A DNA stretch of 64,000 nt from Candidatus Omnitrophota bacterium (GTDB lineage: Bacteria > Omnitrophota > Gorgyraeia > Duberdicusellales > 4484-171). The notes under the pieces are model-generated. The model worked only from the letters and a program-made list of their open reading frames with translations, made no database searches and was not told the origin of the DNA. A program made the translations under genes and the position numbers. Below, piece after piece: positions 2,838-30,400 of the stretch. Positions within the stretch are counted from its first letter, which is position 1. Every line of letters starts with the position of its first letter. Location of the stretch: the NCBI GenBank assembly GCA_021735655.1, contig JAIPGM010000005.1, positions 1 through 64,000 on the forward strand, given 5' to 3'.

Positions 2838-4436
2838 TTACCGCTTGAGCAAGGCAGCCTTAATGAAATCCCTAAATAAAGGGTGAGCAGAGTCAGGTTT
2901 AGATTTAAATTCAGGATGGAACTGGCAAGCTACAAACCAAGGATGGTTTTTTAATTCAATTATCTCAACTAAATTCTTTTGAGGATTAATCCCTGAAAAA
3001 ATCATACCTGCCTTTTCCATTAAATCTCTATATTTATTATTAAACTCATAACGATGTCGATGGCGTTCAGAAATTTTTTCTTTCTTATAGGCCTTGTAAA
3101 CTGTCTCTTTTTTCTTCAAGCAACAATCGTAAGCACCCAAACGCATCGTTGCCCCCTTGTCGCTTAGCATCTTTTGATTTTCAAGTATTGAAATAACCGG
3201 ATATTTAGTATTTTTATTAAACTCTGAAGAATTTGCATTTTTCAGTCCACAAACATTACGCGCAAATTCAATTGCTGCCGTCTGCATCCCTAAACATATG
3301 CCTAAAAAAGGAATTTTATTTTCCCGGGCGAATTTAACTGCTTTGATCTTTCCTTCGATGCCACGGTTACCAAAACCACCCGGGATTAAAATTCCTTTAA
3401 CTTCTTTTAAATATTTCAAAGCATCTTTCTTTTCAATATCTTCAGAGTCAACTTTCTTTATCGAAAGTTTTACGTTATTCTCAATTGCCCCATGGACTAA
3501 GGCCTCATAAATTGACTTATAGGCATCCTGGAGGGCTATATATTTTCCAACAACTGCAATTTCAACCTTTTTTGTCGGAGATTTAACTCTCTTAAGCATC
3601 TTAATCCAATCGGTCAAGTTATCTTCTGGACATTTTAGATTAAGTAACCTAATAATTAACCTGTCTAGTCCCTCCTTCTTGAAAGCAACCGGAACCTCAT
3701 AAATACTTTTTACATCAATAGCAGTAACCACCGCCTCCTTATCGACATTACAAAAAAGAGAAATTTTTTCCCGTGCCTCTTTATTGAGATTTCTTTCGGT
3801 TCTGCAAACAATAATATCGGGAATAATTCCTATCTCACGAAGTTTACCAACACTATGTTGGGTCGGTTTAGTTTTAATCTCTCCGGCCGACTTTATATAA
3901 GGAACTAATGTTACATGGATGTTAATTGCATAGTCGCGACCTAAATCAAGTCGCAGCTGTCTAATTGCCTCCAGGAAAGGGAGTCCCTCGATATCCCCTA
4001 CAGTCCCTCCGATTTCAACAATTACAACATCAACCTGCTGTTTGGTGGCAACTTTGATAATACCTTTTTTTATCTCATCGGTTATGTGAGGAATAATCTG
4101 AACAGTTTTTCCTAAATAATCACCGTGTCTCTCTTTGGAAATAACCGAGTAATATATTTTTCCAGTAGTAATATTATTATCTTTGGTTAACTTAGAATTA
4201 GTAAAACGTTCATAGTGTCCTAGATCTAAATCAGTCTCTGCTCCGTCGTCGGTAACGTAAACCTCTCCGTGTTGAAAAGGATTCATGGTCCCCGGATCAA
4301 CATTAATATAAGGATCACACTTGATAATTGTGACTTTAAGCCCCCGGGATTCAAGAAGCTTGCCAATTGCAGCCGCAGCAATCCCCTTGCCTAAACTCGA
4401 TACGACACCACCGGTAATAAAAATATATTTTGCCAT
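2838..4436 (-). CDS. pyrG: CTP synthase.
   Basis: N-terminus [18 protein letters not shown]...[13 protein letters not shown] and C-terminal GATase domain (GICLGMQ, HPEF) are canonical PyrG. Confidence 0.95.
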
Positions 4437-5812
4437 TACCTCCTCCTTTCTAAAGATCGTTTAGAAAACTTTTTAGGAATTTTTGTCGGATATTTACCAC
4501 TAAAACAAGCTGCGCAAAACTTATCTTTCTCCAAAGGCATAGATTTTAACATACCCTCAAGGCTTAGATACTCCAAACTGTCTAAACCGATAAATTTTTT
4601 AACCTCTTCAATCGTACGACTCGAAGCTATTAACTCTTTCTTTGTCGGAAAGTCTATCCCATAAAAACAAGGTGATATGATTGGCGGGCAACTTACCCGC
4701 ATGTGGATTTCTTTAGCCCCGAACTCCCGTAAAGTTCTCACTCGACTCTTGGAAGTTGTTCCTCGAACAATTGAATCCTCAATAACTACTATTCTTTTAC
4801 CTTTCAAAACATCTCTAATCGGATTAAGCTTCACTCTAACTCTAAAATCTCTAATATATTGAGACGGTTGAATGAAAGTTCGTCCAATGTAATGATTACG
4901 AATCATGCCAACCTCCAAGGGTATACCGCTTTCTTCAGCATAACCCATAGCTGCATAGTTTCCCGAATCAGGAACCGGCATCACTATATCAGCGTCTACC
5001 GAGCATTCTTGGGCAAGTTGTCTACCTAACTGTTTACGCGCTAGATAAACGTTGTTGCCAAAAATATTGCTATCCGGCCTGGCAAAATAAATATATTCAA
5101 AAATACATGACGCTTGATTGCTTTTAGCAAATGGCTTTACCGACTCCAAACTATCTTTTTTTATAAATACTACCTCACCCGGGGCAACATCTCTAACATA
5201 AGTAGCACCAATTAAATCTAAAGCACATGTTTCGCTAGCTAACACATAAACTCCATCAAGTTTTCCTAAGCAGAGTGGACGAAATCCCTGAGGATCTCTT
5301 GCTCCAACTAAAACATCATCCACCATTAATGTTAACGAATAGGCCCCAGCAAGTTTAGAAAGAACTTCAATAACTTTATCTTTAGTACTTTTATTGGACG
5401 ATTTAGCTAAAAGATGGACAATCACCTCTGAATCCATGGTGCTTTGGAAAATAGAACCCTTCTCTTCTAACTCCTTGCGCAAAACTGAAGTATTGGTGAG
5501 ATTCCCATTATGAGCAATAGCTATGTGGCCTTTTTTATGATTAACCAAGAAAGGTTGAATATTTTTAGAAATGCTTGATCCGGTCGTTGAATAACGGACA
5601 TGTCCGACAGCTACATCTCCCCGCAGAGCTTTTATTGCTCGTTCATCAAAAACATCACCAACCAAACCCATAGCCTTATGATATCTGACTCGCCGTCCGT
5701 CATAAGTAACCACCCCGCAGCTTTCTTCGCCACGATGCTGAAGTGCATACAATCCTAAATAAGCCAAACGCGAAGCATCTTTATGTCCAATAACACCAAA
5801 TATTCCACACAT
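4436..5812 (-). CDS. purF: Amidophosphoribosyltransferase.
   Basis: MCGIFGV N-terminal nucleophile Cys and PRTase domain. One-nucleotide overlap with pyrG. Confidence 0.95.
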
Positions 5813-5833
5813 TTTATTATTTCACTCCTTTTG

Positions 5834-8800
5834 TCAGCTAATATATTCCTGTATTGATTTAACTCCTAATTCACCCTTTAGCGCCGACTCTATACCATTA
5901 ACTGCTGCCTGGGCACCCTGAATCGTAGTGATACAAGGAATTCCATACATTACTGCCATGCTCCTTATCGATTTCATATCTGACTGACCTCTTTGGCCAG
6001 AAGGTGTATTTATTATTAATTTTATTTCGCCGCTCTTAATTAAATCCAATAATTGGCCATCGCCTTCGCTAATTTTTCCAACCTCTTTGGCTAAGATATC
6101 GTTGGAACGAAAAACTTTACAAGTGCCCCTGGTTGCCAATATTTTAAACTTCATATCCTTTAGCTTCTTAGCTATAAAAACAATACTTCTTTTATCGTCA
6201 TTTTTAACACTTATAAATATTTTTCCTTCTAACGGCAAAGCTTGACCAGCTGCTACCTGTGACTTATAAAAAGAAGCTCCGAAAGAACTATCTATACCCA
6301 TAACCTCACCGGTTGACTTCATTTCAGGGCCCAGGAGTATGTCTACTCCGGAAAACCTTGAGAATGGCAAAACCGACTCTTTTACCCCACAATGGAAAAT
6401 TTCCTTCTCCTGAGTAAAACCAATTTCATTCAATGTCTGACCAACCATAACCCTAGCAGCAATCTTAGCTAAGGCTACTCCAGTAACTTTACTCACGAAA
6501 GGTATTGTTCTTGAAGCCCGCGGATTTACTTCCAAAACATAAACGATATCGCCTTTTACGGCAAACTGGATATTAATTAACCCACAAACTTTCAATTCCT
6601 TTGCTAAAAGATGTGTATGTTTTCTTATTGTCCCTATAATTTCATCACTCAACGTGTGTGGCGGAATAACACAGGCTGAATCTCCAGAATGAACACCAGC
6701 CTCCTCAATATGCTCCATAATGCCACCGATAACCGTATCTTTTCCATCAGAAACAGCATCCACATCTACCTCCACTGCATCTTCCAAAAATTTATCAATC
6801 AATATCGGGCGGCCTCCCGAAATATTAACTGCCCCTTTGACAAATTGATCTAAAGATTTTTCATCATAAACTATCTTCATTGATCTTCCACCTAATACAT
6901 AAGAAGGTCTAACTAAAATTGGATAACCGATTTCTTTAGCTATCTTTCGGGCAGATTCTTTTGAAATAGCTGATCCGTTTGGTGGTTGGTTAAGGCCCAA
7001 ATCTTTTATTAATTCCGAAAACTTATCTCTATCCTCGGCTCGGTCAATAGAAGATACTGCTGTACCAATAATTGGCGCACCAGCCGCCTCCAATTTTTTA
7101 GCTAGATTAAGCGGAGTCTGACCGCCCAATTGCACTATTACCCCTTGAGGCTTCTCCTTTTCGATAATATTCATTACATCCTCAAAGGTCAATGGCTCAA
7201 AATAAAGCTTATCCGATGTATCGTAATCGGTTGAAACTGTCTCAGGATTCGAATTAACCATAATTGTTTCAAATCCAGCCTCCCTAAGCGCAAACGCAGC
7301 ATGACAACAGCAATAATCAAATTCTATGCCTTGCCCAATACGATTAGGCCCACCACCCAAAATCATTATTTTTTTGTTCTGAGAAACTCTAGTCTCATCT
7401 TCAGTCTCATAAGTAGAATAATAATATGGTGTATAGGCCTCGAACTCGGCCGCACAGGTATCAACCAACTTAAAAGTAGCGGTAACGCCTTTTTCTTTTC
7501 GTAACTTATTTATCGATAACTCATCCGACCCAATCAAATCAGCTATCTGGCGATCACTAAATCCGTACTGCTTGACCTTCTTTAAAAAAACAGCATTTAG
7601 ATCTTTATTGCTTTTAATTTCTTCCTCAAGCTCAACAATCTGCTTTATGTTATCGATAAACCAAAGGTCTATACCCGTCTGTTCAACAATATCATCCAAC
7701 TGCCAGCCTTTCTGAATAGCGTACTTAATATAAAATATTCTTGAGGCATTTGGCTCTTTTAACCTTAAGCTGATTTTCTCATCGGAAACTTCTTTATAAT
7801 CTGACTTGTTGTCCAGCCCGGTATGGCCAATCTCTAATCCTCGCAAACCTTTTTGAAGGGCTTCCTTAAAAGTTCGACCAATAGCCATAGTTTCTCCGAC
7901 TGACTTCATTGATATCCCCAAAATATCCTTTGCCTCGGGAAACTTTTCAAAAGTAAAACGGGGAATTTTAACTACACAGTAATCTATCACCGGCTCAAAT
8001 GAAGCCGGGGTTTCTTTAGTAATATCGTTTTTAATTTCATCCAGGGTATAGCCCACCGCTAGCTTAGCAGCAAACTTTGCTATCGGAAAACCAGTAGCCT
8101 TACTCGCTAGAGCTGAACTGCGTGAAACTCTCGGGTTCATCTCAATAACTACCATTCTTCCATCTTTAGGGTTGACCGCAAATTGAATATTTGAACCGCC
8201 GGTTTCAACGCCGATGGCTCGAATTATATCAATAGAGGCATCGCGCATTTTTTGATATTCTTTATCAGTTAAGGTTTGAGTCGGAGCCACAGTAATTGAG
8301 TCCCCGGTATGAATGCCCATCGGGTCAAAATTCTCTATCGAACAAACTATAACTACATTATCTTTTTTATCACGCATAACTTCTAATTCATACTCTTTCC
8401 AACCAACGATAGACTCCTCAATAAGGATTTCACTAATCATACTGTTATTTAAGCCTAAAGCGGCTATTTCTTCAAATTGTTTTTGGGTGGTAGCGATGCC
8501 TCCTCCAGTTCCACCAAGAGTAAAGCTGGGCCTAATTATCACTGGCAAGCCTATGGCTTTAACCGCTTCTTTTGCTTCTTTGATGTTGTAAGCTAAGGCA
8601 CTCTTAGGTAAATCCAGCCCAATCTCCTGCATTGTTTTTTTAAAAATTTCCCTGTCTTCAGCCTTTTTTATAGCTTCGCAATCGGCACCAATCATCTTAA
8701 CTCCATACCTGTCTAAAATTCCCTGTTCGAAAACCTTCATCGCCGTATTTAGCCCGGTTTGACCACCTAAGGTAGGTAATAATGCATCCGGAGACTCTTT

Positions 8801-9037
8801 CTTGATGATTTTTTCGACTATCTCGGGAGTTATCGGTTCAATATAGGTTGCATCAGCCATTTGTGGATCAGTCATGATCGTGGCTGGATTAGAGTTAAGA
8901 AGAACCACCTTAAAACCTTCTTCTTTTAAAGCCTTGCAAGCTTGAGCCCCAGAATAGTCAAACTCGCAAGCTTGACCAATTATTATTGGCCCAGAACCAA
9001 TGATTAAAATTTTTTTAATATCCTCTCTTTTAGGCAT
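5834..9037 (-). CDS. carB: Carbamoyl-phosphate synthase large subunit.
   Basis: 1067 aa with duplicated ATP-grasp halves and an MGS-like C-terminus; canonical CarB motifs. Confidence 0.95.
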
Positions 9038-10109
9038 AACTCTTTATCATTGAAATGAATTCATCGAATAAATATTCAGCATCATGCGGACCGGGCGAAC
9101 TTTCAGGATGAAATTGAACTGAAAATAACGGCAAGCTTTTGTGACGCAACCCTTCAAGGGTATTATCATTAAGGTTAACCTGCGTTACTTCTATTGATTC
9201 GCAATCTAAAGAATTAATGTCAACGCAAAACCCATGATTTTGTGCCGTTATTGAAACTTTACCGGTTTTTAAATCCTTAACTGGATGATTTCCACCATGA
9301 TGACCAAATTTAAGTTTGTAGGTTCTGCCACCCAAAGCCTGACCAAGTATCTGATGCCCAAAACAAATTCCAAAAAGCGGAACTTTACCGATCAGCCCCT
9401 TTACTGTATCAACAAGATAAGTAACGGCCGAAGGGTCTCCCGGACCATTAGAAAGTAACACTCCGTCAGGTTTAATTTTAAAAATTTCGTCTAAAGCGAT
9501 ACTTGCCGGCACAACCGTTACCTTGCAATTCCTCTCACTTAATTTCCTTAAGCTGTTCAGTTTTAAACCGCAGTCAATAACAACTATCTTAAATTTTCCC
9601 TTATCACTCCAAACCCAAGGCTCCTTACAGGTAACCTCTTTTACCAAATCAATACCGATTAACCCTTTTGATTCTCTAGCCCGCTTAACTAAAATTTGGT
9701 CACTACAATTTTCAGTTGAAATCACCGCTTTCATCGCTCCCTTAAGTCTTATTTGTCGCGTAAGGGCTCTAGTATCAAAACCTTCAATGCCAATTACATC
9801 ATTCTCAGTCAAATAATCCGGAAGGCTCTGGGTAGCACGCCAATTACTATAAACCCTGCTGCATTCGCGCACTAAAAACCCTTCCAAAAATGGCTTCTTT
9901 GATTCAACATCACCAGGATTAATTCCATAATTACCAATTAAAGGATAAGTCATTAAAACAATTTGCCCTTTATAGGAAGGATCGGTAATTATCTCCTGAT
10001 AACCACTTAAGCTGGTATTGAAAACTACTTCACCACTCCTTTCCCCCGAACCAGAGAAGCAATCTCCTTGGAAAATAATTCCATTTTCAAGAGCTATTCG
10101 AGCTTTCAC
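9030..10109 (-). CDS. carA: Carbamoyl-phosphate synthase small (glutaminase) subunit.
   Basis: CPSase_sm N-domain plus GATase1 (GICFGHQ, HPE). Eight-nucleotide overlap with carB. Confidence 0.95.
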
Positions 10110-12694
10110 GACGACGTCTCCTTTTTACTAAAAAAACATATAACCCTTTGCGAAGTAACATCGGAGATTATCCTCAAATCTTCGCTGCTTAGGTCATAGA
10201 CACTAATAATATCTTTATACTTAGCAGAACCAGGTACTAATTTAGCGAGCAAATTATCATGCTCAATCAACCAAGACTTATTAAATATAACTCCCTTATT
10301 TTCAGGAAAAAGAGCAATATAAAATATGCTAGTTTCGACTAAATCCTGAAAGAAATGGGTTCCAAAAGATAATTCCGGCATAAGGTTTCCAGCTGAAAAT
10401 GCAACCTCAGCTAAGACTGCTATATTATTTATCTCGGCAAATTTTACTGGAACGCCCAAGGATGGAGTTGTTGTGCCCCATCTTCCCGGTCCGATAAGAA
10501 GAGTATAGAACTGCTCCCGATCAGTCAGATTCCGATTGAGCCGCCCGACAACCCGAGCGATTTCATACTTATCTGATAAAACTAATTTATTGTAACCTTC
10601 CGGATCAATATAGATAATTCTTTCTACTTTATGAGAAATATTTCCGCCGAAAAAATACCCTTGAGACTCAAAAAATATATCAGTTTTAAGTATTTTCTTA
10701 GGCATCCTGACCCTTTTACCGATACCAACTGTTTGTAATGGTCTACACTGTAATACATTTATTTTAAATAAATCATCCTCAGTAAAATTAACGGTAAATT
10801 CTAATTCTACTGGATAATTATAACTTTTCTCAAGTAATTCCAGTATCTTCTTAAAAGAATTGGCTAATTTACTCTTGCTAAAAGCCTTATCTAAAGTTAA
10901 TATCCAGTAATCCTTATCTTTTAAATTTCTACCGCGCATCATTTCTGTAGCTTCATAATCTTTAACCGCCATGCGGTTTAAATCGTTATAAATATTACTA
11001 CGAGCCAAATCATTAAATGAAATGGTTTCAAAACTATTATTTTTTGTATTTATAACATCGACCTCGTGCTGTGAGAATTTTCGCAAATCGTCTTTTTCGG
11101 CATACGGCCTTCGCAAAGGATCATCTAAAGCAACCATCCTCGGATAATCACCTTCAACCCGATTAACCGCTCTAGTGCCCAGCCCAAAAACTACCCTAAG
11201 CATTCCCGCTTTAGGGTCAATATCTTTATTCCAAACATGGGTATTGTGTGAAACTCCAACCCCAGCTAGATCAGGGAAAAAACAACAATCATGATGGGCT
11301 CCAGAAACTCGTTGTATTAAAAGCGCCATCTGCTCATCCAACTTGTCCAAACCACGCTGCTTCCGGTAGACTAAAGCATCCTCGCTCATGGTGCTGGCAT
11401 AAATTTTTCTTACTGCCTCGGCAAACATAAGATATCTTTGCTCGGGGCTGCCCTGGTTAGCCAAAAATATACTCTCATACTTACCAGCAAAAGCATTACC
11501 AAATCCGTCCTCAAGCAATGAACTTGACCGTATGATAATCGGTGAAGAGCCAAAATATTCAATAATTTGTTGAAAATGTTCTCTGATCTCCTCAGAAAAA
11601 GTTCCATAAAGCATCTTATCTTTAAGAATCTTCGCAATCGAAAAATAACCTTCTTCGCCTCTTTGCTGCATACGTAATTTCCACCAGCGGTTTTGCACAA
11701 TATAAGAATAAAATATATCTGAACCAATATAAAACGAATCGTGTGGTTCTGAAAGTTTAGGCCAATCCGGCAATTTTTCCGAAAGCATCTTACGGGCCAA
11801 AAGCATACCAGCGCTTTTACCACCGATAAAACCAGTTCCAATTAAGCGAGATTTTATATCAATTAACTCAGCCAGTGATAAATTATTCACTGCCAACGAC
11901 ATAATTTTTTCATTTTTGCTTATCATCAAGCTACAAATTTTCTTAACAATATCGGATATTTTTTCCTTAGCCGGCCGGACCTTAATTAGTTCGTCAGCTT
12001 CAAGAAATAAACGATCCCAATAATCAAGATTTCGCTTTGCGCTTTCAAGGCCCTTTTCGCTAATATGAGAAAGTATTTCTACCGCATTAATGCTGTCGGC
12101 AATTGGTGTCCAGCGATCATCTTCTCTTTGATGCGGAAGAAACATTGTCGGTGTATACCGATTCCAAACTTTCAACGGATGGATATAAAAACTTCCCCGA
12201 CAGCGATAGACATCCATAAGCAGTTGTGTGGTTTCTCGTATTTGAGCTATCGACTTAAAAGAATGACTATTACGTAATATCGAAAAATAAGTTAAAGTTT
12301 TAAGTTCGTAAAGATAAGGACAAGTTACCATAAAAAAATTACCAATCATTAAATCACTGGCCCAAGCCGAGAGCAACTCTGAAAGGCAATCAAAAACATA
12401 ATAAGCGCCCTGGCCTTCTTTAGTAATAATTTGATTTAATTCGGTAGCAAACGACTCAAAACCAATCGAAGGTTTAAGATCATATCGCTTTATCTTAGCT
12501 GAAGATTCTAGTAACTCTTTATGTGAAGCAAAACGGATATAGATAACCTTCTTATCCTCAAGCAAAGCCTGATCAACAAAAGGCTTAACCAGCTCAACGT
12601 AGTCTTCTATATCATCAATTTGCCAAACAACATTGTCACCAGCTCGTAACCCGGTAATTACTTTATCCAAACCTTTTATTCCCGTACTTATCAT
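10106..12694 (-). CDS. Large protein of unknown function: degenerate KaiC/RecA-like N-domain plus a PEP-synthase/PPDK_N-type ATP-grasp domain.
   Basis: 862 aa. The N-terminus GIKGLDKVITGLRAGDNVVWQID resembles KaiC/RecA domain starts but has no Walker A motif. The central region has PpsA/PPDK_N signatures (IIRSSSLLEDGFGNAFAGKYESI; ...FKINVLQCRPLQ). The C-terminus has GPGRWGTTTP, a swivel-like stretch without the catalytic His. ATGA overlap with carA and an 11-nt gap after gltD place it in the same operon. Confidence 0.55.
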   Translation of the reverse strand: MISTGIKGLDKVITGLRAGDNVVWQIDDIEDYVELVKPFVDQALLEDKKVIYIRFASHKELLESSAKIKRYDLKPSIGFESFATELNQIITKEGQGAYYVFDCLSELLSAWASDLMIGNFFMVTCPYLYELKTLTYFSILRNSHSFKSIAQIRETTQLLMDVYRCRGSFYIHPLKVWNRYTPTMFLPHQREDDRWTPIADSINAVEILSHISEKGLESAKRNLDYWDRLFLEADELIKVRPAKEKISDIVKKICSLMISKNEKIMSLAVNNLSLAELIDIKSRLIGTGFIGGKSAGMLLARKMLSEKLPDWPKLSEPHDSFYIGSDIFYSYIVQNRWWKLRMQQRGEEGYFSIAKILKDKMLYGTFSEEIREHFQQIIEYFGSSPIIIRSSSLLEDGFGNAFAGKYESIFLANQGSPEQRYLMFAEAVRKIYASTMSEDALVYRKQRGLDKLDEQMALLIQRVSGAHHDCCFFPDLAGVGVSHNTHVWNKDIDPKAGMLRVVFGLGTRAVNRVEGDYPRMVALDDPLRRPYAEKDDLRKFSQHEVDVINTKNNSFETISFNDLARSNIYNDLNRMAVKDYEATEMMRGRNLKDKDYWILTLDKAFSKSKLANSFKKILELLEKSYNYPVELEFTVNFTEDDLFKINVLQCRPLQTVGIGKRVRMPKKILKTDIFFESQGYFFGGNISHKVERIIYIDPEGYNKLVLSDKYEIARVVGRLNRNLTDREQFYTLLIGPGRWGTTTPSLGVPVKFAEINNIAVLAEVAFSAGNLMPELSFGTHFFQDLVETSIFYIALFPENKGVIFNKSWLIEHDNLLAKLVPGSAKYKDIISVYDLSSEDLRIISDVTSQRVICFFSKKETSS

Positions 12695-12705
12695 TTTAGA
12701 AACCT

Positions 12706-14151
12706 CTAAGTAACCGATAAGTTACTTTCTCCGATTAAATACTTATCAATATAATGAGCACAACGCCTGCCTTCAGAAATAGCCCAAACAACCAGTGACT
12801 GGCCACGTCGCATATCTCCGGCCGAAAAAACTTTATCAACCGATGTCATATATTTATTATCGGTTTTTACATTTCCCTGCTTGTCAAGTTTAACTTTAAG
12901 ATCGCTAAGTAAGCCAGCATGTTCCGGATGTAAAAACCCTATAGCCAAAATAACTATATCAACCTCAATCTCAAAATCACTCCCGAGAATATCTTGCATA
13001 ACCGGGCAACTCTTGCCATCAGCTGCAACAAATTCTACCCTTTTACAGCAAATTTTCTTTAAGCGACCACCCTTGCCAACAAATTGCTTTGTCAAAACAG
13101 CCCATTGACGTTGACCACCCTCCTGATGACTTGAGGTCGTCTTTAAAAGTAAAGGATAATTCGGCCAAGGATAATCTTTACTACGGCACCGTAAAGGCTT
13201 CGGCATGACTTCTATCTGGACAACCCTAGCTGCCGACTGACGATGAGCAGTCCCTAAACAATCAGCCCCGGTATCGCCTCCGCCGATAACAACAACTCTT
13301 TTACCAGAGACATCAATAATTTGATCCTCTGGAATACTCTCACCGGAAAGCCTTCTGTTGACTTGGGTTAAATAGTCCATAGCGTAATAAATACCCTTAA
13401 GTTCCCTGCCCTTTATTTTAAGATCTCTTGGAACGCGTGAGCCTCCGGCTAAACAAATAGCATCAAATTCAGTTGTCAGTTTTTCAACCGAATAATCTCT
13501 TCCTACATCAACACCGGTCTTAAAAACAACCCCTTCCTCTTTCCAAATATTGATACGCCGATCGATTATAGACTTTTCAAGTTTAAAATCAGGTATACCA
13601 TAACGAAGAATTCCTCCCGGTTGATTGTCGCGCTCAAAAATAACTACCCTGTGTCCGGCCCGGTTTAGTTGAGTTGCCACAGTTAAACCAGCTGGGCCTG
13701 AACCAACAACCGCTACTTTTTTGCCAGTCCGCTCGCCTACAGTGATCGGTTTAATTATCCCGGCTCTAAAACCAAATTCACTAACAGCCAGCTCATTTTC
13801 AGCAATAGTAACAGCATCACTATTCAAAGCTAACACGCAAGCATGCTCGCAAATAGCCGGACAAATTCTACCAGTTATTTCTGGAAGATTGTTGGTCGCT
13901 TCTAATAACTTAACTGCTTCTTCCCAATTGCCCTTAAACATATAATCATTCCACTCCGGGATATAGTTTCCTATCGGACAGGCCCAATGACAAAAAGGCG
14001 TACCACAATCCATGCAACGTGATGCCTGCTCCTGCGACTGCTCATCGGGTCGCAGATAGCGAACTTCTTTAAAATCCTGAATTCGCTCATCGACCTGACG
14101 ATACTTACCCTCTTTTCTTGATGCCTTCAGAAAACCTCTTAAATCACCCAT
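12706..14151 (-). CDS. gltD: Glutamate synthase (NADPH) small subunit.
   Basis: Cys cluster CMDCGTPFC...CP and the VAVVGSGPAGL FAD/NAD motif. Start taken at the ATG (MGDLRG) preceded by GGAG. An alternative TTG start at 14172 is possible. Overlaps the gltB stop. Confidence 0.9.
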   Translation of the reverse strand: MGDLRGFLKASRKEGKYRQVDERIQDFKEVRYLRPDEQSQEQASRCMDCGTPFCHWACPIGNYIPEWNDYMFKGNWEEAVKLLEATNNLPEITGRICPAICEHACVLALNSDAVTIAENELAVSEFGFRAGIIKPITVGERTGKKVAVVGSGPAGLTVATQLNRAGHRVVIFERDNQPGGILRYGIPDFKLEKSIIDRRINIWKEEGVVFKTGVDVGRDYSVEKLTTEFDAICLAGGSRVPRDLKIKGRELKGIYYAMDYLTQVNRRLSGESIPEDQIIDVSGKRVVVIGGGDTGADCLGTAHRQSAARVVQIEVMPKPLRCRSKDYPWPNYPLLLKTTSSHQEGGQRQWAVLTKQFVGKGGRLKKICCKRVEFVAADGKSCPVMQDILGSDFEIEVDIVILAIGFLHPEHAGLLSDLKVKLDKQGNVKTDNKYMTSVDKVFSAGDMRRGQSLVVWAISEGRRCAHYIDKYLIGESNLSVT

Positions 14152-17100
14152 CGTATGTCTCCGACAAACCAAGTTTTTCCTCTATCTGTGCTTCCTCTAA
14201 TATGCGCTTATACTCTATCGGTATAACCCGGATAAATTTTTTGAGTTCTTCATTCATGCTATCGATAACCCTTTTTGCTCTTTTGCTTCCGGTATATTTG
14301 AAATGGTTATCAAGTAAATTATACAATACATCTTTGTCCTTCTCCTTGATCTCTTGAAGTTCAACCATATCTAAATTACATTTATTTCTAAAGGTCTTAT
14401 CTTGATCATAAATATAAGCTATTCCGCCACTCATACCAGCAGCAAAATTTCTGCCGGTTTTGCCTAAAACAATTACTCGACCACCAGTCATATATTCACA
14501 ACCGTGATCGCCAAGACCTTCAACAACTGCATACAACCCGGAGTTTCTTATGCAAAACCTCTCACCAGCTACACCACAAATATAAGCCTCACCGGAAATT
14601 GCTCCATAAAAACTAGTATTGCCGATAATTATATTCTCAGTCGGTTCAAAATCAGCTCTTTTATCCGAATATACTATTATTTTTCCACCGGATATACCTT
14701 TTCCGATATAATCATTAGCCATCCCCTCTAATTCAAAAGTAATGCCCTTAGCTAGAAATGCACCAAAACTTTGTCCGGCTGCACCCTTAAACTTACAATT
14801 AATTGTGTCCTCTAAGAGCACTCCATCACCGCATCTGCGTGAAAGTTCACCGCTCAACATTGCACCGGTAGCCCGATTGGTATTATTAATATCCATAACT
14901 ATATTTACCGGCCTATTTTTCTTAAAAGCAACTTCACTCATCTTTATTAGCTTACTATCTAAAACCGAACCTAAATCTTTAGCCTGTTTAGACTTTCGAT
15001 ATGGTTTGATATTTTGATTAGAGCAATCCGGACGATAAAGAATTCTTGATAAATCCAATCCTTTTGCTTTTTCCGGAACAATCGCCCTATCCATTTCAAG
15101 CAAATCAGTACGTCCAATCATCTCATTAATAGTTCTTATTCCTAAACTTGCCATAATCTGACGGAGTTCTTTTACGACAAAATGAAAATAATTTACTATA
15201 TATTCCGGACGGCCCCTAAACCGTTTCTGCAAAATATCATCCTGGGTAGCTACCCCGACTGAACAATTATTTAAGTGGCAATGCCTGAGCATAACACAAC
15301 CACTGATAATCAAGACAGCCGTACAAAAACCATATTCTTCGGCTCCCAATAAGGCAGCTATTGCAACATCGCGACCAGTGCGTATTTGTCCATCGGTCTG
15401 TATGCGAACTCTCGAACGTAGCTTGTTAAGTATCAAAGTCTGATGTGTTTCAGAAAGGCCCAACTCCCAAGGAAGCCCAGCATAACGTATTGAACTCATT
15501 GGCGAGGCACCAGTACCGCCATCACCCCCTGAAATAAGTATCATGTCAGCGTGACCCTTAGCTACCCCGGCAGCAACCGTGCCCACGCCTAGCTCCGAAA
15601 CAAGCTTCACACTCACCCGGGCATTAGGGTTGGCATTTTTTAGATCAAAAATTAACTGGGCTAAGTCTTCAATTGAATAAATATCATGATGTGGTGGCGG
15701 TGATATTAAAGTTACTCCCGGAGTAGTAAACCTAGTCCTAGCAATTGATTCACTGACTTTATGTCCCGGAAGTTGACCGCCTTCTCCTGGCTTTGCGCCT
15801 TGGGCAATTTTTATCTGTATTTCATCAGCATTAACTAAATAATTTATAGTTACCCCAAAGCGGCCAGAAGCAACCTGTTTTATGGCACTTCTTCTGGAAT
15901 CACCGTTAGGTAAAGTTATAAATCTAGATGGATCCTCTCCGCCCTCACCAGTATTAGACTTTCCACCTATTCTATTCATAGCAATAGCAATAGTTTCATG
16001 AGCCAATCTACTTATTGAGCCAAAACTCATGGCACCGGTAGCAAAACGTTTCATGATATCCTTAGCTAGCTCAACCTTATCAATCGGAATTTCCTTTTGC
16101 TTCTTAAACTTAAACAAACTCCTCAAAGTCGTTGGATTAGCTGACTGATCGTTTATAACCTGAGCAAATTCGCAATAACGATCATAATCATTATTAGTTG
16201 CAGCGTCCTGTAAAGTTGCTATACTTTTTGGATTCCAAAGATGAAACTCGCCGTCTTTTTTCCACTGGTAAATTCCACCACTAGCCAAGTAAGGTTTCTC
16301 AATCACTCTCCTAGGATAAGCCTCTTTATGTCTTTCGATGGTTTCGTTAGCAACCCCTAATAGGCTAACTCCGCCAATCCGAGATGCTGTACCAGTAAAA
16401 TATTTGTCAATAAAATCGGAAGCTAAACCCAAAGCTTCAAATATCTGAGCGCCCCGATAACTTCTCAAGGTAGATATCCCCATCTTTGAAAGTATCTTTA
16501 AGATACCGTCAGTTAAAGCTTTTCGGTAATTAGTTAAGGCTTTTTGATAATCAAGAAAAATTTCTTTTTTATCGATCAGATAACCAATAGCTCCATAAGC
16601 AAGGTAAGGATTTATACAATCAGCCCCATAGCCAATAAGTAGGGCAAAATGGTGTACTTCCCGAGGCTCAGCACTTTCAACAACTATCGCCACCTGTGAA
16701 CGAATAGTCTTTTCTACCAAATGCTGGTGGACAGCGCTTACCGCTAAAAGAATCGGAAGAGCAATATTATCTTTATTAACTCCCCGATCGCTGAGAATAA
16801 CAAAAGAATATCCTTGTTCAATGGCATATTCTGTTTCAAAACAAATTCGCTCTAGAGCTCGGACAAAACCTTCTTGACCACTGGCAGCATCAAAAAACGT
16901 ATATACTGTTTTGGCTTTAAATCCATTTATACTGATATCACGTAAATTCTGAAACTCTTGATCATTCAATATTGGATTTTTAACTCTAAGCTTATGACTA
17001 TGCCCCGGAGTTTCCTCAAGAATATTCTTCTCCGGGCCGACATAGCTCTCCAAACTCATAACTAACTTCTCTCTAATTGAATCTATGGCCGGATTAGTAA

Positions 17101-18676
17101 CTTGAGCAAAAAGCTGCTTAAAATAACTATAAAGCAGTTGGGGTTTGGCCGATAAAAAAGCATGCGGAGTATCATTACCCATTGAGCTAACCGGTTCTTT
17201 CCCACTTTCAGCCATAGGCTTTATAATTAACCTAAGGTCTTCACGTGAATAGCCAAAAGCTTTTAAACTGTAGATTATTTCTTCATATTCCTCTCGGTTA
17301 CAATCACCAATAGCCAATTCATCAAAATTAACCATGCCTGCATCGTTCCATTGTTTGTAAGGAAAACGAGAAGCTACCCGTCGCTTAATTTCCGAATCAT
17401 CTACTATTGAGCCGGATTCAGTATCAATAAAAAATATCTTTCCCGGCTCGAGCCGTCCAGAAAGCTTGATTTCTGCTGGATCTATATCTAAAACACCAAC
17501 TTCCGATGCCATTACCACGAATCCATTCTTGGTTATTATGTACCGAGCTGGTCTGAGACCATTTCGATCAAGAGCGGCTGCTATGTTTTTTCCATCAGTA
17601 AAAGCTACAGCGGCCGGGCCATCCCAAGGCTCCATAAAACAAGCATGATACTTATAGAAATGTTTTAGCTCCGAGCTCATTGATTTGTCGTCTTCCCAGG
17701 CTGCTGGGATTAACATCATCATCGCATGCTCGATAGATCTTCCCGACAAAACCAAGAGCTCCAAAATGTTATCGAGCGCAGCTGAATCACTTCCACCCTT
17801 AACGATAACTGGTTTCAACTTATCAATATCGCTACCAAATGATTGACTAACCAACAACCTTTCCCTGGCGCTTACCCAATTTATATTGCCACGTAAAGTG
17901 TTTATTTCGCCATTGTGGGCTAAAAAACGGAAAGGTTGGGCTAAATCCCAAGTAGGAAAAGTATTTGTACTATAACGTGAATGGACTAAACAAAGTGAAC
18001 TTTCTAAGGAGCTATCCTTTAAATCAACAAAAAAATCACGTAGTTGCGAAGGCATTAGCAAACCTTTATAGCTTAAAGTCCGAGACGACAGGTTAGTTAT
18101 ATAAAAAAAAGATTTCTGCTTTAATCCGGCTACGCTAATTGCATTTTCGATTTGTTTACGAATAACATAAAGTTTTCGTTCAAAACCAAGCTGATCATCT
18201 AATTCCCCGCTTCTACCAATAAAAGCCTGAGATATAAATGGCATGCTACGCCTAGCACCTTTGCCAATCACTGAAACTTCAACCGGAACGTCACGCCAAC
18301 CTAAAAACTCTTGGCCTTCCTGTTTAATCTTTTTTTCGAATATACCGCGGCAAATGTCTCGTTCGTTCTTATCGGTCGGTAAAAATACTAAGCCAGTACC
18401 ATAGAAATTTGCCTTTGGCAAATTAATTCCGCTAGCTTTACATTTTTCAAACAAAAACTTATGTGGTATCTGAATAAGCATACCGGCGCCATCCCCGGTA
18501 TTAGGATCTGAACCAACAGCTCCACGATGACTTAAGCGCTCAAGAACCTCAATGCCCTTATCAATAAGAGCATAAGATTTCTTGCCGTTTATATTACAAA
18601 CAAACCCTACACCACAGCTATCATGCTCAAACTGCGAATCATATAAACCCTGGGTTTTAGGAAAATTGGAAAACAT
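14144..18676 (-). CDS. gltB: Glutamate synthase large subunit.
   Basis: 1510 aa. Ntn amidotransferase Cys (DSCGVGF), FMN/Fe-S central domain and the GXGXG C-terminal domain. Confidence 0.95.
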   Translation of the reverse strand: MFSNFPKTQGLYDSQFEHDSCGVGFVCNINGKKSYALIDKGIEVLERLSHRGAVGSDPNTGDGAGMLIQIPHKFLFEKCKASGINLPKANFYGTGLVFLPTDKNERDICRGIFEKKIKQEGQEFLGWRDVPVEVSVIGKGARRSMPFISQAFIGRSGELDDQLGFERKLYVIRKQIENAISVAGLKQKSFFYITNLSSRTLSYKGLLMPSQLRDFFVDLKDSSLESSLCLVHSRYSTNTFPTWDLAQPFRFLAHNGEINTLRGNINWVSARERLLVSQSFGSDIDKLKPVIVKGGSDSAALDNILELLVLSGRSIEHAMMMLIPAAWEDDKSMSSELKHFYKYHACFMEPWDGPAAVAFTDGKNIAAALDRNGLRPARYIITKNGFVVMASEVGVLDIDPAEIKLSGRLEPGKIFFIDTESGSIVDDSEIKRRVASRFPYKQWNDAGMVNFDELAIGDCNREEYEEIIYSLKAFGYSREDLRLIIKPMAESGKEPVSSMGNDTPHAFLSAKPQLLYSYFKQLFAQVTNPAIDSIREKLVMSLESYVGPEKNILEETPGHSHKLRVKNPILNDQEFQNLRDISINGFKAKTVYTFFDAASGQEGFVRALERICFETEYAIEQGYSFVILSDRGVNKDNIALPILLAVSAVHQHLVEKTIRSQVAIVVESAEPREVHHFALLIGYGADCINPYLAYGAIGYLIDKKEIFLDYQKALTNYRKALTDGILKILSKMGISTLRSYRGAQIFEALGLASDFIDKYFTGTASRIGGVSLLGVANETIERHKEAYPRRVIEKPYLASGGIYQWKKDGEFHLWNPKSIATLQDAATNNDYDRYCEFAQVINDQSANPTTLRSLFKFKKQKEIPIDKVELAKDIMKRFATGAMSFGSISRLAHETIAIAMNRIGGKSNTGEGGEDPSRFITLPNGDSRRSAIKQVASGRFGVTINYLVNADEIQIKIAQGAKPGEGGQLPGHKVSESIARTRFTTPGVTLISPPPHHDIYSIEDLAQLIFDLKNANPNARVSVKLVSELGVGTVAAGVAKGHADMILISGGDGGTGASPMSSIRYAGLPWELGLSETHQTLILNKLRSRVRIQTDGQIRTGRDVAIAALLGAEEYGFCTAVLIISGCVMLRHCHLNNCSVGVATQDDILQKRFRGRPEYIVNYFHFVVKELRQIMASLGIRTINEMIGRTDLLEMDRAIVPEKAKGLDLSRILYRPDCSNQNIKPYRKSKQAKDLGSVLDSKLIKMSEVAFKKNRPVNIVMDINNTNRATGAMLSGELSRRCGDGVLLEDTINCKFKGAAGQSFGAFLAKGITFELEGMANDYIGKGISGGKIIVYSDKRADFEPTENIIIGNTSFYGAISGEAYICGVAGERFCIRNSGLYAVVEGLGDHGCEYMTGGRVIVLGKTGRNFAAGMSGGIAYIYDQDKTFRNKCNLDMVELQEIKEKDKDVLYNLLDNHFKYTGSKRAKRVIDSMNEELKKFIRVIPIEYKRILEEAQIEEKLGLSETYDG

Positions 18677-18897
18677 TAACTCCTCCAGTCTTTAACACGA
18701 ATGCCCAGCCTTTTAATCTTTGAATGAAGAGTGTTTCTATTAAGGCCTAAAATCTTTGCCGCCTGAAGCTTATTGCCATCAACACGAGCTAAAACTGACT
18801 CAATCAAAGGTTTTTCAATGGCCTCGATGACCATTCGGTAAACTTCACCATCTTTAGCTTTAAAAAAAATATCATCAAATTCTACCATTTTTTTCAT
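18676..18897 (-). CDS. Small Fis/NtrC-C-terminal-type HTH DNA-binding protein.
   Basis: 73 aa. The C-terminus LQAAKILGLNRNTLHSKIKRLGI is a Fis-family HTH_8 motif. Its stop overlaps the gltB start, suggesting translational coupling. Confidence 0.65.
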   Translation of the reverse strand: MKKMVEFDDIFFKAKDGEVYRMVIEAIEKPLIESVLARVDGNKLQAAKILGLNRNTLHSKIKRLGIRVKDWRS

Positions 18898-18904
18898 CCC
18901 CTAC

Positions 18905-18945
18905 CAAAAAATAAAAATAAATTATTTTGCCTATATTTTAGGCAA
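18905..18945 (-). terminator. Terminator-like AT-rich hairpin plus U-run between the GATase1 gene and the Fis-HTH/gltB start.
   Basis: Minus strand: UUGCCUAAAAUAUAGGCAA followed by a U-rich tract, ending about 8 nt before the RBS GGTAGGGG of the Fis-like gene. Confidence 0.45.
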
Positions 18946-21027: not shown

Positions 21028-21052
21028 CTTACACCTCCGTTTTGTTTATGCT

Positions 21053-21098
21053 CCTAAAAATAAAAATGGTGTCTTAAGCCCTAAGGCTTTAAAACACC
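21053..21098 (-). terminator. Intrinsic-terminator-like hairpin plus U-run between glnB and glnA, ending ~25 nt before the glnA start codon.
   Basis: Minus strand: GGUGUUUUAAAGCCUUAGGGCUUAAGACACC followed by AUUUUUAUUUUU, then RBS GGAGG and ATG. Two further hairpins sit upstream (21119-21133, 21140-21155). Confidence 0.55.
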
Positions 21099-21228
21099 AT
21101 TGTTTTGAAAGCTTTTTTGCACAAACTTTGTGCTTTTTTGGCTGAAATTTCAGCCCTCAATATATATAAGTAAAAAAATGGGTCTTTTGGTAACCTTTTT
21201 TTTAAAATTTTTTCCTGGCCCATAAAAT

Positions 21229-24344: not shown

Positions 24345-25136
24345 TTAGAATCCGTAGCTAACTTCAAAACCACCCCATAATTCTTCATCACCATTATTAA
24401 TCTCTTCTTCATGATTAATCGTATAGTGCAAACTAGGAGTTAGACTGAAACCACCCAAAGCATAAGAAGTTGATAATGAAAGTTCAGTCGCATAAAGCGA
24501 GCTAGGTTCAAGATCGGCAACTCCGTCATTGCCCCAGTTAACTACTCCTAAGGCAAGAGTTTGTCCTTCTTGAATTAAAGAATGCTTCAGAAGCGGGAGT
24601 TCAGCATCAAAACCCCAAGAATAATACCAACCCTCATCAGGACCACCGGATTTGGCTTGAAAATCATAGCCGGCAAAAAAGCTTGCTGAAACGTCAATTG
24701 GAAGAAAAGGTATTTTATTCAAGGTTCCGGAAAGCCAAGACTCAGAAACATCAGCCGTGCTGGCTGTATTAGGAAAGTCAAAGTAAGTATATCCGGTTGA
24801 AAAATTAAATTGATCATCGAATAGATCTCGAGAAAAAGTTACAGTATAATCAAGCTCTTCGCCGTCTTCATGCCCACTATTCATCGGAAATGATCCCCAG
24901 ACATTGAATGAAAGGTCAACCCCATCGATAAGCCCAGGAAATCCAATATCAATACTCGGCTGGTGTGCTCCATCATTATCGCTATAGAGATCTTGCCCAC
25001 GCCAGATATATCTAGAAACATAAGTATCAGTTACGGTAACCTCAACCGGCTGGCCAGCAAACTCAAAAGCATAAATATCCCCTAAAAAAATAACACTAAA
25101 TATTATATTCATTAACCAAACTGATATTTTTTTCAT
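24345..25136 (-). CDS. Putative outer-membrane beta-barrel protein (porin-like), first gene of the amt operon.
   Basis: Signal peptide, alternating amphipathic beta-strand pattern, aromatic-rich, C-terminal ...SYGF. 15-nt gap to amt. Confidence 0.6.
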   Translation of the reverse strand: MKKISVWLMNIIFSVIFLGDIYAFEFAGQPVEVTVTDTYVSRYIWRGQDLYSDNDGAHQPSIDIGFPGLIDGVDLSFNVWGSFPMNSGHEDGEELDYTVTFSRDLFDDQFNFSTGYTYFDFPNTASTADVSESWLSGTLNKIPFLPIDVSASFFAGYDFQAKSGGPDEGWYYSWGFDAELPLLKHSLIQEGQTLALGVVNWGNDGVADLEPSSLYATELSLSTSYALGGFSLTPSLHYTINHEEEINNGDEELWGGFEVSYGF

Positions 25137-25149
25137 AATTTTCTCCCTT

Positions 25150-25200
25150 AAAAATAAAAAAGCGCATTATTCCAAATATCCACCTTTGGAATAACACGCC
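25150..25200 (-). terminator. Intrinsic-terminator-like hairpin plus U-run in the 5' leader immediately upstream of the OMP-amt operon RBS.
   Basis: On the minus strand: GCGUGUUAUUCCAAA-(loop)-UUUGGAAUAAUGCGC (~14 bp stem) followed by UUUUUUAUUUUU, then the RBS AAGGGAG and ATG. There is no room for a promoter between the terminator and the start. Confidence 0.6.
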
Positions 25201-25245
25201 TTTGTGTTTTTACTTAACCTCTACAATCAATTAAGTAAAAAAACT

Positions 25246-25758
25246 CTATCTTTGGTAACCTTTATTTTTCCATTTTTGAACTATTTTCTTTTTATGCTTA
25301 ATAATCATAACATGAGAACAATCAAGCTCTTTGGCTATTTCACGAACAGTATATCCTTTCAACAAATAAGACAAAACCGATTTATCCTTATCAGTTAAAC
25401 CTAAACTATTAATTTCATCAATCGTAAGATTATGATCTATATTTGGTATAAAGTCGGCTTTTTCATCCTTAAGAATATCGCCCAAGGTTTGTCCATTAGG
25501 AGAAATTAACTTATCCAAGCTTGAAATATTCGCCTTAGGCCTACCTTTTCTTAAGAAATTCTGTAGATGAAACTCACAGCCCTTAATTACATAGGCTTGA
25601 TTAATGCCGATCGGCAACCCATTAGAATAATTTTCCCAAAGATAAAGACACATCTCTTGGTATAGATCTTCCTCACTATAAAAACCACGCAGCAAATGCT
25701 TGCGTGCAACAAATCTTAAGCTGGGAGTTATTTTTTCTAATAATATCCTAAAGTCCAT
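25246..25758 (-). CDS. Small sigma-70-family (ECF-like) sigma factor or sigma-like regulator.
   Basis: 170 aa. Region-2-like DLYQEMCLYLWENY. Region-4 HTH LLKGYTVREIAKELDCSHVMIIKHKKKI. Confidence 0.6.
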   Translation of the reverse strand: MDFRILLEKITPSLRFVARKHLLRGFYSEEDLYQEMCLYLWENYSNGLPIGINQAYVIKGCEFHLQNFLRKGRPKANISSLDKLISPNGQTLGDILKDEKADFIPNIDHNLTIDEINSLGLTDKDKSVLSYLLKGYTVREIAKELDCSHVMIIKHKKKIVQKWKNKGYQR

Positions 25759-29547: not shown

Positions 29548-29639
29548 TCTTGTCTCCCCTTACCCTTACATTCTGTCAATTTTTCAAAAATAGCACAGAA
29601 AATAAAAAAACGCCTTTTCTTTGCGCTGCTGTGCAAAAA

Positions 29640-29672
29640 AAAGACGTCCTTGTCTCCTGTATAAATATACCA
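29640..29672 (-). promoter_or_regulatory. Candidate sigma70-like promoter (TTGACA-16-TATATT) upstream of the nfnA-nfnB-gdhA unit.
   Basis: Minus strand: cacTTGACAattcgatttagattggTATATTtatac, about 100 nt upstream of the nfnA start, followed by a structured leader. Confidence 0.4.
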
Positions 29673-29698
29673 ATCTAAATCGAATTGTCAAGTGATTT

Positions 29699-30400
29699 TC
29701 AGTCTTTTTTTATTTCTTGAGCTAAGATAACTGCCTCAGCAATTTCCTTCATCGAAACCCGCTTGTCCATACTTATCTTTCTTATTAAAGCATAGGCTTT
29801 ATCTTCGGTTAATTTTTGCTGATTCATCAAAATGCCTTTGGCCCGCTCGATCTTTTTACGGGCCTGAAGCTCTTCCTGAACTATCTGAGTCTTAACCATT
29901 AACTCCGTATTCTCAATAGCAACTGCGGCCTGATTAGCCACAGTACTGAGAAGCTTAATGTCGCCTTTGGTGAACTTATACTCTGTAGTCGTATAGCAGT
30001 TAATAACTCCGACTGCTCTTCGCTTAACCATCATCGGCACACTAAGCATTGAAACCAACCCTAGCAATTTAGCCAGCTTTTTTTCTTTATAGCTCTTATC
30101 TTTGGAAACATCTAAAATAGTTATCGGTTTTTTGTCATGAGCAACCAGACCGACTATACCTTCGCCTATCTTTAAACTCCGCTCCTTTAAATATTCGCTA
30201 TTTAAAGCCTGGGTAGCTCTTATTTTTAACTCTTTTTTCTTATCATCTAAAAGCCATAAAGCACAAATCTTGGCCTTCATTACATTAGCAGTTAAAGTTA
30301 CTATCAACTTCAATACGTCTTCCAAATATAAATCAGAAGTAATAGCAATGCTAATTTTACTTAAAGTATCGATGTAAGCTTTGTAAGAAGTTTTTGGCAT
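29699..30400 (-). CDS. GAF-ANTAR RNA-binding antitermination regulator.
   Basis: 233 aa. N-terminal GAF-like domain. The C-terminus (ELQARKKIERAKGILMNQQKLTEDKAYALIRKISMDKRVSMKEIAEAVI) is a typical ANTAR coiled-coil/helical domain. Confidence 0.8.
   Translation of the reverse strand: MPKTSYKAYIDTLSKISIAITSDLYLEDVLKLIVTLTANVMKAKICALWLLDDKKKELKIRATQALNSEYLKERSLKIGEGIVGLVAHDKKPITILDVSKDKSYKEKKLAKLLGLVSMLSVPMMVKRRAVGVINCYTTTEYKFTKGDIKLLSTVANQAAVAIENTELMVKTQIVQEELQARKKIERAKGILMNQQKLTEDKAYALIRKISMDKRVSMKEIAEAVILAQEIKKD

Follow-up and report, generated by a model that had tools for sequence, protein, structure and literature searches.

A stretch of 64,000 nucleotides from a Candidatus Omnitrophota bacterium (contig JAIPGM010000005.1, positions 1 to 64,000 of the forward strand, hereafter the window) carries, immediately upstream of the glutamate synthase gene gltB, a small open reading frame (ORF) for a standalone helix-turn-helix (HTH) protein of the Fis/NtrC type. 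In most relatives the gene keeps its position before glutamate synthase, is joined to it closely enough for translational coupling and is preceded by a palindromic box that matches the sites of Fis and NtrC. We consider it probable, although by no means assured, that the product of the ORF is a small Fis-family (HTH_8) regulator, acting as a homodimer and dedicated to the glutamine synthetase-glutamate synthase (GS-GOGAT) genes of Omnitrophota, which exerts feedback through the box.

The assignment to HTH_8 (PF02954, 'Bacterial regulatory protein, Fis family') is far beyond chance, since the Pfam search proposed by the first-pass annotation of this DNA returned E = 1e-13 and 51.2 bits against a cut-off of 22, with residues 24-64 aligned to positions 2-42 of the 42 in the profile. 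That annotation had described the 73-aa product as an isolated Fis/NtrC HTH with neither receiver nor AAA+ domain, and this description holds. The Pfam search returned no domain besides HTH_8, the AAA+ sigma54-interaction domain (Sigma54_activat, GAFTGA) had no Pfam or NCBIfam match in a protein whose 73 aa leave no room for it, and a receiver domain with a phospho-acceptor Asp is absent. The protein is thus not an enhancer-binding protein (EBP). Nor was a MerR-type winged HTH, as in GlnR/TnrA, detected by Pfam. The top NCBIfam models were the short and long Fis equivalogs followed by NtrC, all far under their cut-offs (for PRK00430 and PRK01905, 49.2 bits against 99 and 58.2 against 122). When a profile of the HTH family was compared with the PDB, E. 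coli Fis was matched at E = 5e-15, over Fis residues 35-97 alone, and the DNA-binding domains of ZraR, NtrC and NtrC4 more weakly. Structure prediction agrees with this ranking: the AlphaFold2 (AF2) model has four helices (2-13, 16-38, 43-50 and 54-64) at a pLDDT of 86, and Foldseek retrieved Fis first (TM 0.68), then the NtrC4 DNA-binding domain. Invariant across the family alignment are E28, G41, A47, L50, G51, N53, R54, N55, T56 and K60, among which N53, R54 and T56 align with N84, R85 and T87 of Fis, the residues that contact DNA in Fis-DNA crystal structures. Two features set the family apart from Fis. The beta-hairpin arm that Fis has before helix A, at about residues 1-25 of its 98, is missing, the predicted model being all-helical from residue 2, and a C-terminal tail in which Lys or Arg comes after an aromatic residue (W70-R71 in the window, F or Y elsewhere) is found family-wide and not in Fis. 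This tail is kept even where its codons, with F or Y replacing W, cannot act as a Shine-Dalgarno (SD) sequence.

Homologues are numerous in metagenomes and genomes of Omnitrophota. A word-indexed search gave 37 relatives, those with names being Omnitrophota/Omnitrophica Fis-family or HTH proteins, HMMER over 1.8 billion representatives gave 2490 matches below 1e-10, most of the top 150 measuring 65-130 aa, and tblastn confirmed 349 genomic stretches with homologues. Dozens of species carry an intact ORF at 45-77% identity. About 15 proteins of 185-260 aa, as well as P0038, contain 2-7 tandem HTH_8 units, and one protein of 1423 aa has seven matched stretches; such a multi-HTH_8 architecture is unusual. 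In each of seven relatives (50-72% identity) the small gene lies immediately 5' of glutamate synthase. A species-level scan, in which a single genome stood for each GTDB species, returned 80 loci. Most come from Omnitrophota metagenome-assembled genomes, accompanied by WOR-1/Margulisiibacteriota and some unclassified bins. The HTH gene is followed by a fused gltB in 58 of these loci and by a split glutamate synthase of archaeal type in four; in six more a GAF-ANTAR gene precedes it, and in L039, the sole one of the six inspected, the next gene encodes a 529-aa PF01645 (Glu_synthase-domain) protein. Roughly ten loci, from Oligoflexus and other Pseudomonadota, have ordinary Fis or EBP contexts. 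The conservation in relatives on which the first-pass annotation had wished to see its proposal checked is therefore broad. Domains of the GATase_2, Glu_syn_central, Glu_synthase and GXGXG types were found in the gltB homologues of related loci. In L011, where glutamate synthase is split and of archaeal type, the HTH gene overlaps the first subunit by 4 nt. The upstream neighbour, on the other hand, changes between a GATase, GSI, GSIII, PII and a GAF-ANTAR protein.

The junction with gltB is equally telling. The stop codon of the HTH ORF (TAA, 18678-18676) and the ATG of gltB (18676-18674) have one base in common, the minus strand reading ...GAC TGG AGG AGT TAA TG, so that the overlap of stop and start noted from the first reading of the sequence is real, and such a join is kept in most relatives: of the 58 species loci with a fused gltB, 50 offer a gltB start codon at -30 to +25 nt from the end of the HTH gene, and 17 of these could begin with an overlap of -1 or -4. 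As in the window, TGGAGG or TGGAAG codons at the end of the HTH gene double as the SD of gltB in L001, L004, L006 and L007. At the other end of the ORF, the true product is probably 70 aa long and begins at ATG 18888, because the SD-like GGTAGGGG would then have a spacing of 9 nt and because the database protein P0001, 100% identical to that of the window, is called at this length. Conserved ORF, synteny and coupling across the species loci show that the gene is genuine and under selection, and that glutamate synthase is its constant partner.

Between the stop of the GATase gene (18962) and the HTH start lies a spacer of 64 nt, and within it the palindrome TGCCTAAAATATAGGCA, perfect over 17 bp and reaching 19 bp with its flanking T/A (TTGCCTAAAATATAGGCAA, 18927-18945). 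No other zero-mismatch site occurs in the window, and with a position weight matrix this one reaches 25.3 bits, against 13.8 for the runner-up. Its consensus, TGCyTAAAwTTTArGCA, is found at 15 bits or more 5' of the HTH gene in 58 of 69 family loci versus 1 of 16 non-family loci, with the 3' end usually 2-40 nt before the predicted HTH start codon; although the initial search imposed nothing on the centre, it is conserved as AAwTT. Over all loci there are 139 sites of at least 12 bits, versus 9-16 in shuffles. Additional strong boxes stand before glnA (e.g. L019, L025, L032, L038, L043 and L062) or before a GAF-ANTAR gene that precedes the HTH gene. The box behaves as a DNA site and not as a conserved RNA stem, because changes in its arms are uncompensated (at seven unique sites the left-arm C at position 3 is replaced by A with the partner still G) and because its transcript folds no better than shuffles (z-score of -0.8); a conserved RNA hairpin was rejected on these grounds. 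A terminator was rejected as well, the stem being a weak one of 7 bp with no T-run after the box in relatives. As a separate observation, the codons for the conserved AAKILG helix reproduce the box almost perfectly in some relatives (TGCCAAAATTTTAGGCA, scoring as high as 22 bits; L031 at 3607-3623, L018, L027, L033 and L048). This probably reflects chance codon usage, though such a copy would be an intragenic site; the HTH gene of the window has none.

An idea of what binds the box came from its comparison with known sites. The inner 15 bp, GCyTAAAwTTTArGC, agree at every specified position with the Fis consensus GNtYAaWWWtTRaNC (PMC2816674), and the full 17 bp have the TGC-N11-GCA frame of the 17-mer NtrC consensus, TGCACCAnnnTGGTGCA (PMC8743547), this frame being conserved at the hth-glt and glnA promoters. 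In a reverse test, metagenome contigs were scanned for the exact sequence TGCYTAAAWTTTARGCA, which returned 120 loci, two of them Omnitrophota-type glnA-GATase-box-HTH loci. The exact box was found 25-100 nt 5' of dusB in 11 of the 120, which are proteobacterial contigs, many of 55-65% GC (L125, at 10235-10251, L184, L142, L151, L149, L159, L156, L145, L096, L147 and L148), five of them with a Fis-like match nearby. Since dusB is the first gene of the dusB-fis operon and Fis autoregulates at its own promoter, this box looks like a conserved Fis autoregulatory site. In nine others (L095, L154, L165, L168, L177, L183, L185, L209 and L211), belonging to Puniceispirillum-like, Sphingomonadales, Rhodospirillaceae and Beijerinckiaceae groups, it lies 150-230 nt 5' of glnB-glnA; the PII proteins there are alphaproteobacterial, four of the nine contigs have a TGGCACG-N4-TTG sigma54-like promoter between box and genes, and the box is likely to be the NtrC upstream activating site of these Alphaproteobacteria. 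In Caulobacter, NtrC binds and activates glnBA and represses its own synthesis, and its motif from chromatin immunoprecipitation has been described as Fis-like (bioRxiv 10.1101/2023.06.06.543975). The dusB and glnB-glnA promoters are targets of HTH_8 proteins, and the third class, the Omnitrophota hth promoters, would likewise be controlled by one. Fis autoregulation, NtrC action at Caulobacter glnBA and the promoters returned by the reverse scan thus suggest that the box is a generic high-affinity site for HTH_8 dimers, and we infer strongly from its position and conservation that in Omnitrophota it is occupied by this particular HTH protein.

The likeness to Fis raises the question of whether the protein might simply be the phylum's Fis orthologue, a general nucleoid-associated DNA bender whose adjacency to gltB is a frozen accident and whose box is an autoregulatory site. 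Fis proper is a homodimer that bends DNA at 15-bp G-N13-C sites with an A/T-rich centre. The Fis proteins of Gamma- and Betaproteobacteria, including the betaproteobacterial PRK01905 of about 77 aa, are the closest match in sequence and structure, sharing the standalone HTH_8, the four-helix fold and the N-R-x-T contact residues, and the box is both a Fis-consensus site and the one found at proteobacterial dusB-fis promoters. Nevertheless, we regard orthology as distinctly unlikely. The Omnitrophota protein falls far under both NCBIfam equivalog cut-offs (58 bits where 122 are needed, 49 where 99 are), lacks the arm region and has the extra aromatic-basic tail, and its gene sits between a GATase gene and gltB and not with dusB, no DusB match being present in any of the 69 family loci (DusB was found in non-family L079 and L085 only). 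The linkage to glutamate synthase outlasts changes in enzyme architecture and upstream neighbour, the extra boxes within loci are specifically at glnA and GAF-ANTAR promoters, and the box, a palindrome of high information content found only at nitrogen genes, contrasts with the degenerate sites that Fis has across the genome. With score, arm region and synteny all speaking against it, the window protein is a member of Pfam HTH_8 and not a Fis equivalog. Of the 'autoregulatory nucleoid-like factor' suggested by the first-pass annotation, the autoregulatory part gains backing from the conserved Fis/NtrC-type palindrome directly upstream; the nucleoid-like part finds none, because the fixed synteny with glutamate synthase and a box confined to nitrogen-gene promoters point to a dedicated regulator.

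The second system to be compared is the C-terminal domain of NtrC (GlnG) and other bacterial EBPs, among them the unconventional NtrC of Caulobacter and Rhodobacter, which acts with sigma70. Here the HTH_8 domain is the same, the theme of glnA and glt control recurs, and the 17-bp TGC-N11-GCA palindrome is shared to the point that the identical 17-mer stands 5' of alphaproteobacterial glnB-glnA. Unlike NtrC, however, the Omnitrophota protein has no receiver, AAA+ domain or GAFTGA loop, and therefore would be unable to remodel the sigma54 holoenzyme or to take a phosphorylation input. A gene for a partner kinase was not seen next to it, although no search was aimed at one. An enhancer-type sigma54 arrangement was looked for in the window and rejected, TGGCAC-N5-TTGCW having 23 matches versus 22 expected and none in the relevant spacers, and inspection of the box-to-gene stretch for a sigma54 promoter in the high-GC locus of the L011 type revealed nothing clear. 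A trace of common ancestry may persist in about one third of the family, whose members are about 125 aa long and have an N-terminal extension that starts with MITILIAEDE and reaches GY. A profile of this extension matched receivers in the PDB over positions ~4-46 only (E = 1.9e-5 for YycF, 3e-5 for PhoP and 7.7e-4 for the receiver of NtrC4, the matches as a whole spanning 2e-5 to 8e-4), stopping short of the acceptor Asp. Pfam found Response_reg once among the long variants, at E = 0.004, and it took the profile comparison with the PDB to bring the relationship to light. The AF2 model of a 126-aa variant is uninformative on the fold of this stub, its N-terminal half having a pLDDT below 60. 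By these matches the ~125-aa variants carry a truncated receiver without the acceptor Asp, which supports descent of the family from a response regulator. The further step of viewing the window gene as a decaying, functionless remnant of an NtrC-type response regulator, as a DNA-binding domain on its own and the stub of its longer relatives might invite, is essentially refuted by conservation: the ORF is intact in dozens of species at the identities given above, its DNA-contact residues are invariant, and both its position and its upstream box are conserved. The first-pass notion of a 'remnant of an NtrC system' was consequently wrong as to decay, the ORF being conserved across the phylum, and may be right as evolutionary history.

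How might such a protein act? In the mechanism that we favour, a dimer of the HTH protein would bind the A/T-centred 17-bp palindrome 2-40 nt before its own start codon (18928-18944 in the window). The box would lie over or just downstream of the promoter of hth-gltBD-carAB-purF-pyrG, and binding would most likely repress, because the distance from box to ATG is too short for the geometry of a class I or class II activator. With the HTH gene as leading cistron, translationally coupled to gltB, the level of the regulator would report operon output; its concentration would therefore track that output and create a homeostatic negative feedback. Many relatives have a second box, before glnA, through which the regulator would keep the expression of glutamine synthetase and glutamate synthase in balance. 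The status of nitrogen could enter through a partner (PII, GS or GltB) that contacts the family-specific C-terminal aromatic-basic tail, or it could act purely upstream, by read-through from an attenuator-controlled glnA promoter. The latter option bears on the first-pass claim that the HTH gene is the first cistron of its operon, which is no more than plausible: 64 nt upstream on the same strand are glnA and the GATase gene, no convincing terminator intervenes, and read-through may occur.

There is precedent for a regulator of this design, although in another fold. Bacillus GlnR is a small repressor without a sensor domain, encoded by the first cistron of the glnRA operon, which receives its signal from feedback-inhibited GS via its C-terminal tail; it has a MerR-type winged HTH and the operator TGTNAN7TNACA. 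GlnR/TnrA would be the closest functional analogue, as a small leading-cistron regulator, despite an unrelated fold, a different operator and a partner operon that is glnA and not gltB. GltC, the LysR-type activator of Bacillus gltAB, is likewise a dedicated regulator adjoining glutamate synthase genes. It differs in family, in size (~300 aa with an effector domain) and in being divergently transcribed.

Several observations weigh against the proposed feedback circuit. About 11 of the 69 family loci have no good box, and a protein of 70 aa has no obvious sensor for nitrogen. The glnA leader of the window has weak palindromes only and no strong box, and a two-promoter regulon is therefore not evident in the window. 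(At 21119-21155 of this leader, an insertion of ~50 nt relative to L001 and L004 holds the palindromes GGCTGAAATTTCAGCC and GCACAAAGTTTGTGC, with centres 21 bp apart, the GC-N11-GC frame and an AAAnTTT centre as in the HTH_8 box; they score 8 bits or less.) The box, moreover, could be bound by other DNA-binding proteins of the cluster, such as a 170-aa GerE/LuxR-type protein or an HTH_17-GS fusion, and its centre (TAAAAT/TATAAT) could simply be a -10 element. These last two points lead to an alternative in which the palindrome is not the operator of the HTH protein, which would act elsewhere, but a promoter element, the site of another regulator (e.g. the GerE-type protein) or a weak hairpin separating glnA-GATase from glt. 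GerE-type genes do recur in these clusters, the centre does resemble a -10 hexamer, and a terminator scan lists the box as a weak 7-bp hairpin. We nonetheless rate this alternative as quite improbable, for each position of the box agrees with the known sites of HTH_8 proteins and the box occurs at HTH_8-controlled promoters across unrelated phyla, while the uncompensated arms, the RNA fold that is not above shuffles and the missing T-run in relatives speak against a hairpin. A search for sigma70 -35/-10 elements around the window box revealed a conserved TTGAC just 9 nt 5' of the central TAAAAT and no convincing pair.

The lack of a sensor domain has a different implication if the HTH protein works mainly by contact with glutamate synthase, PII or GS, coupled translation delivering the dimer to nascent GltB and the catalytic or ligand state of the enzyme freeing or sequestering it. 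The stop/start coupling, the invariant adjacency to the catalytic subunit whatever the enzyme architecture, and a C-terminal aromatic-Lys/Arg tail that Fis does not have and that is kept where its codons cannot be an SD are all in accord with this scenario. Against it, the conserved W-R/K codons serve in part as the SD of gltB, and in eight of the 58 loci a gap of 41-110 nt separates the HTH gene from gltB; we take it for a doubtful alternative of low probability. Slightly less doubtful, yet still unlikely, is a bolder reading that combines operator binding with such contacts: a 70-aa dimer of the Fis/NtrC type, itself devoid of a sensor, would be translated together with glutamate synthase and receive its nitrogen signal from the enzyme, PII or GS via its tail. 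It would form a new trigger-enzyme circuit and at the same time be an intermediate between response regulators of the NtrC type and standalone proteins of the Fis type. This reading covers Omnitrophota together with a few Margulisiibacteriota and unclassified lineages, and the intermediate would be a living one because some family members keep the truncated receiver stub.

The features of the window that bear on the proposed feedback regulator are collected in Table 1. The big operon downstream, announced by the first-pass annotation as a glutamate synthase-car-pur-pyr operon, is present as described: the HTH gene is followed by gltB, gltD, the gene of a PPDK_N protein, carA, carB, purF and pyrG, with junctions of -29 to +42 nt, and gltBD, carAB, purF and pyrG encode enzymes that use glutamine as amide donor.

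Table 1. Coordinates of the HTH gene, its candidate operator and associated features in the window
Feature	Position	Strand	Remarks
Standalone HTH_8 (Fis/NtrC-type) ORF	18676..18897	minus	73 aa from ATG 18897, more likely 70 aa from ATG 18888
TAATG stop/start overlap of HTH ORF and gltB	18674..18678	minus	read from sequence
Shine-Dalgarno of gltB, GGAGGAG	18680..18686	minus	inside the terminal Trp-Arg-Ser codons of the HTH ORF; 3 nt before the gltB ATG
SD-like GGTAGGGG	18898..18905	minus	0 nt from the first ATG (18897), 9 nt from the in-frame ATG 18888
17-bp perfect palindrome TGCCTAAAATATAGGCA, candidate operator	18928..18944	none	in the GATase-HTH spacer
gltB, glutamate synthase large subunit	14144..18676	minus	1510 aa; ORF; invariant downstream partner of the HTH gene
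gltD, PPDK_N-domain protein, carA, carB, purF, pyrG	2838..14172	minus	Pfam and ORF coordinates
Conserved PPDK_N-domain protein	10106-12694	minus	862 aa; role not known; also in L001 and L004
GAF-ANTAR gene	29699-30400		

The HTH gene itself lies within a long co-directional nitrogen cluster that begins with the GAF-ANTAR regulator and continues with a DHODB-FeS and GltD-like pair, gdh, the 170-aa GerE-type protein, a 263-aa protein, two amtB genes with a PII gene, glnA (GSI) and the gene of a class-I GATase of 242 aa, after which come the HTH gene and the operon from gltB to pyrG. The 263-aa protein (24345-25136, minus strand) has no Pfam match, and the 170-aa protein (25246-25758, minus strand) has a C-terminal GerE/LuxR HTH as its sole match; genes for the two recur 5' of amtB in numerous nitrogen clusters of Omnitrophota (L001, L004, L006, L026, L038 and others), and both are uncharacterised candidate members of the same regulon. 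An asnB-like gene lies further upstream (57338-59278, minus strand). Divergent from the big operon, at 142-1677 on the plus strand, is the gene of a 511-aa glutamine synthetase in which an N-terminal HTH_17 (residues 5-47) is fused to Gln-synt_N and Gln-synt_C, and which could be an enzyme-regulator fusion. Long terminator-like hairpins with T-runs occupy the leaders of the DHODB/gltD-like/gdh unit (29606-29691), the 263-aa/amtB unit (25158-25203) and glnA (~21050-21100), all on the minus strand, the first being preceded by a TTGACA-16-TATATT promoter. Together with the GAF-ANTAR gene, these hairpins suggest an antitermination layer of nitrogen control. A scan of the whole window with Rfam gave zero matches.

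Well-understood systems of nitrogen control are those of Proteobacteria (NtrBC), Firmicutes (GlnR/TnrA), Actinobacteria (GlnR/AmtR) and Cyanobacteria (NtcA); in the uncultured phylum Omnitrophota such control is, to our knowledge, essentially unknown. In the searchable literature we found no account of this HTH family or of its link to glutamate synthase, whether under Fis-family proteins and gltB, nitrogen regulation in Omnitrophota or standalone Fis-like nitrogen regulators, and the system outlined here probably represents a self-regulating switch of nitrogen assimilation that had not been described before. The HTH protein and its box are a concrete candidate for the transcriptional regulator of Omnitrophota GS-GOGAT, and the box lets regulons be predicted from metagenomes alone. 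A standalone HTH_8 protein that is still inside a nitrogen regulon, and whose box is the same as the sites upstream of proteobacterial dusB and alphaproteobacterial glnBA, also bears on the origin of Fis from NtrC-like domains. Finally, if nitrogen were sensed through glutamate synthase, the system would represent a new example of a transcription factor controlled by an enzyme.

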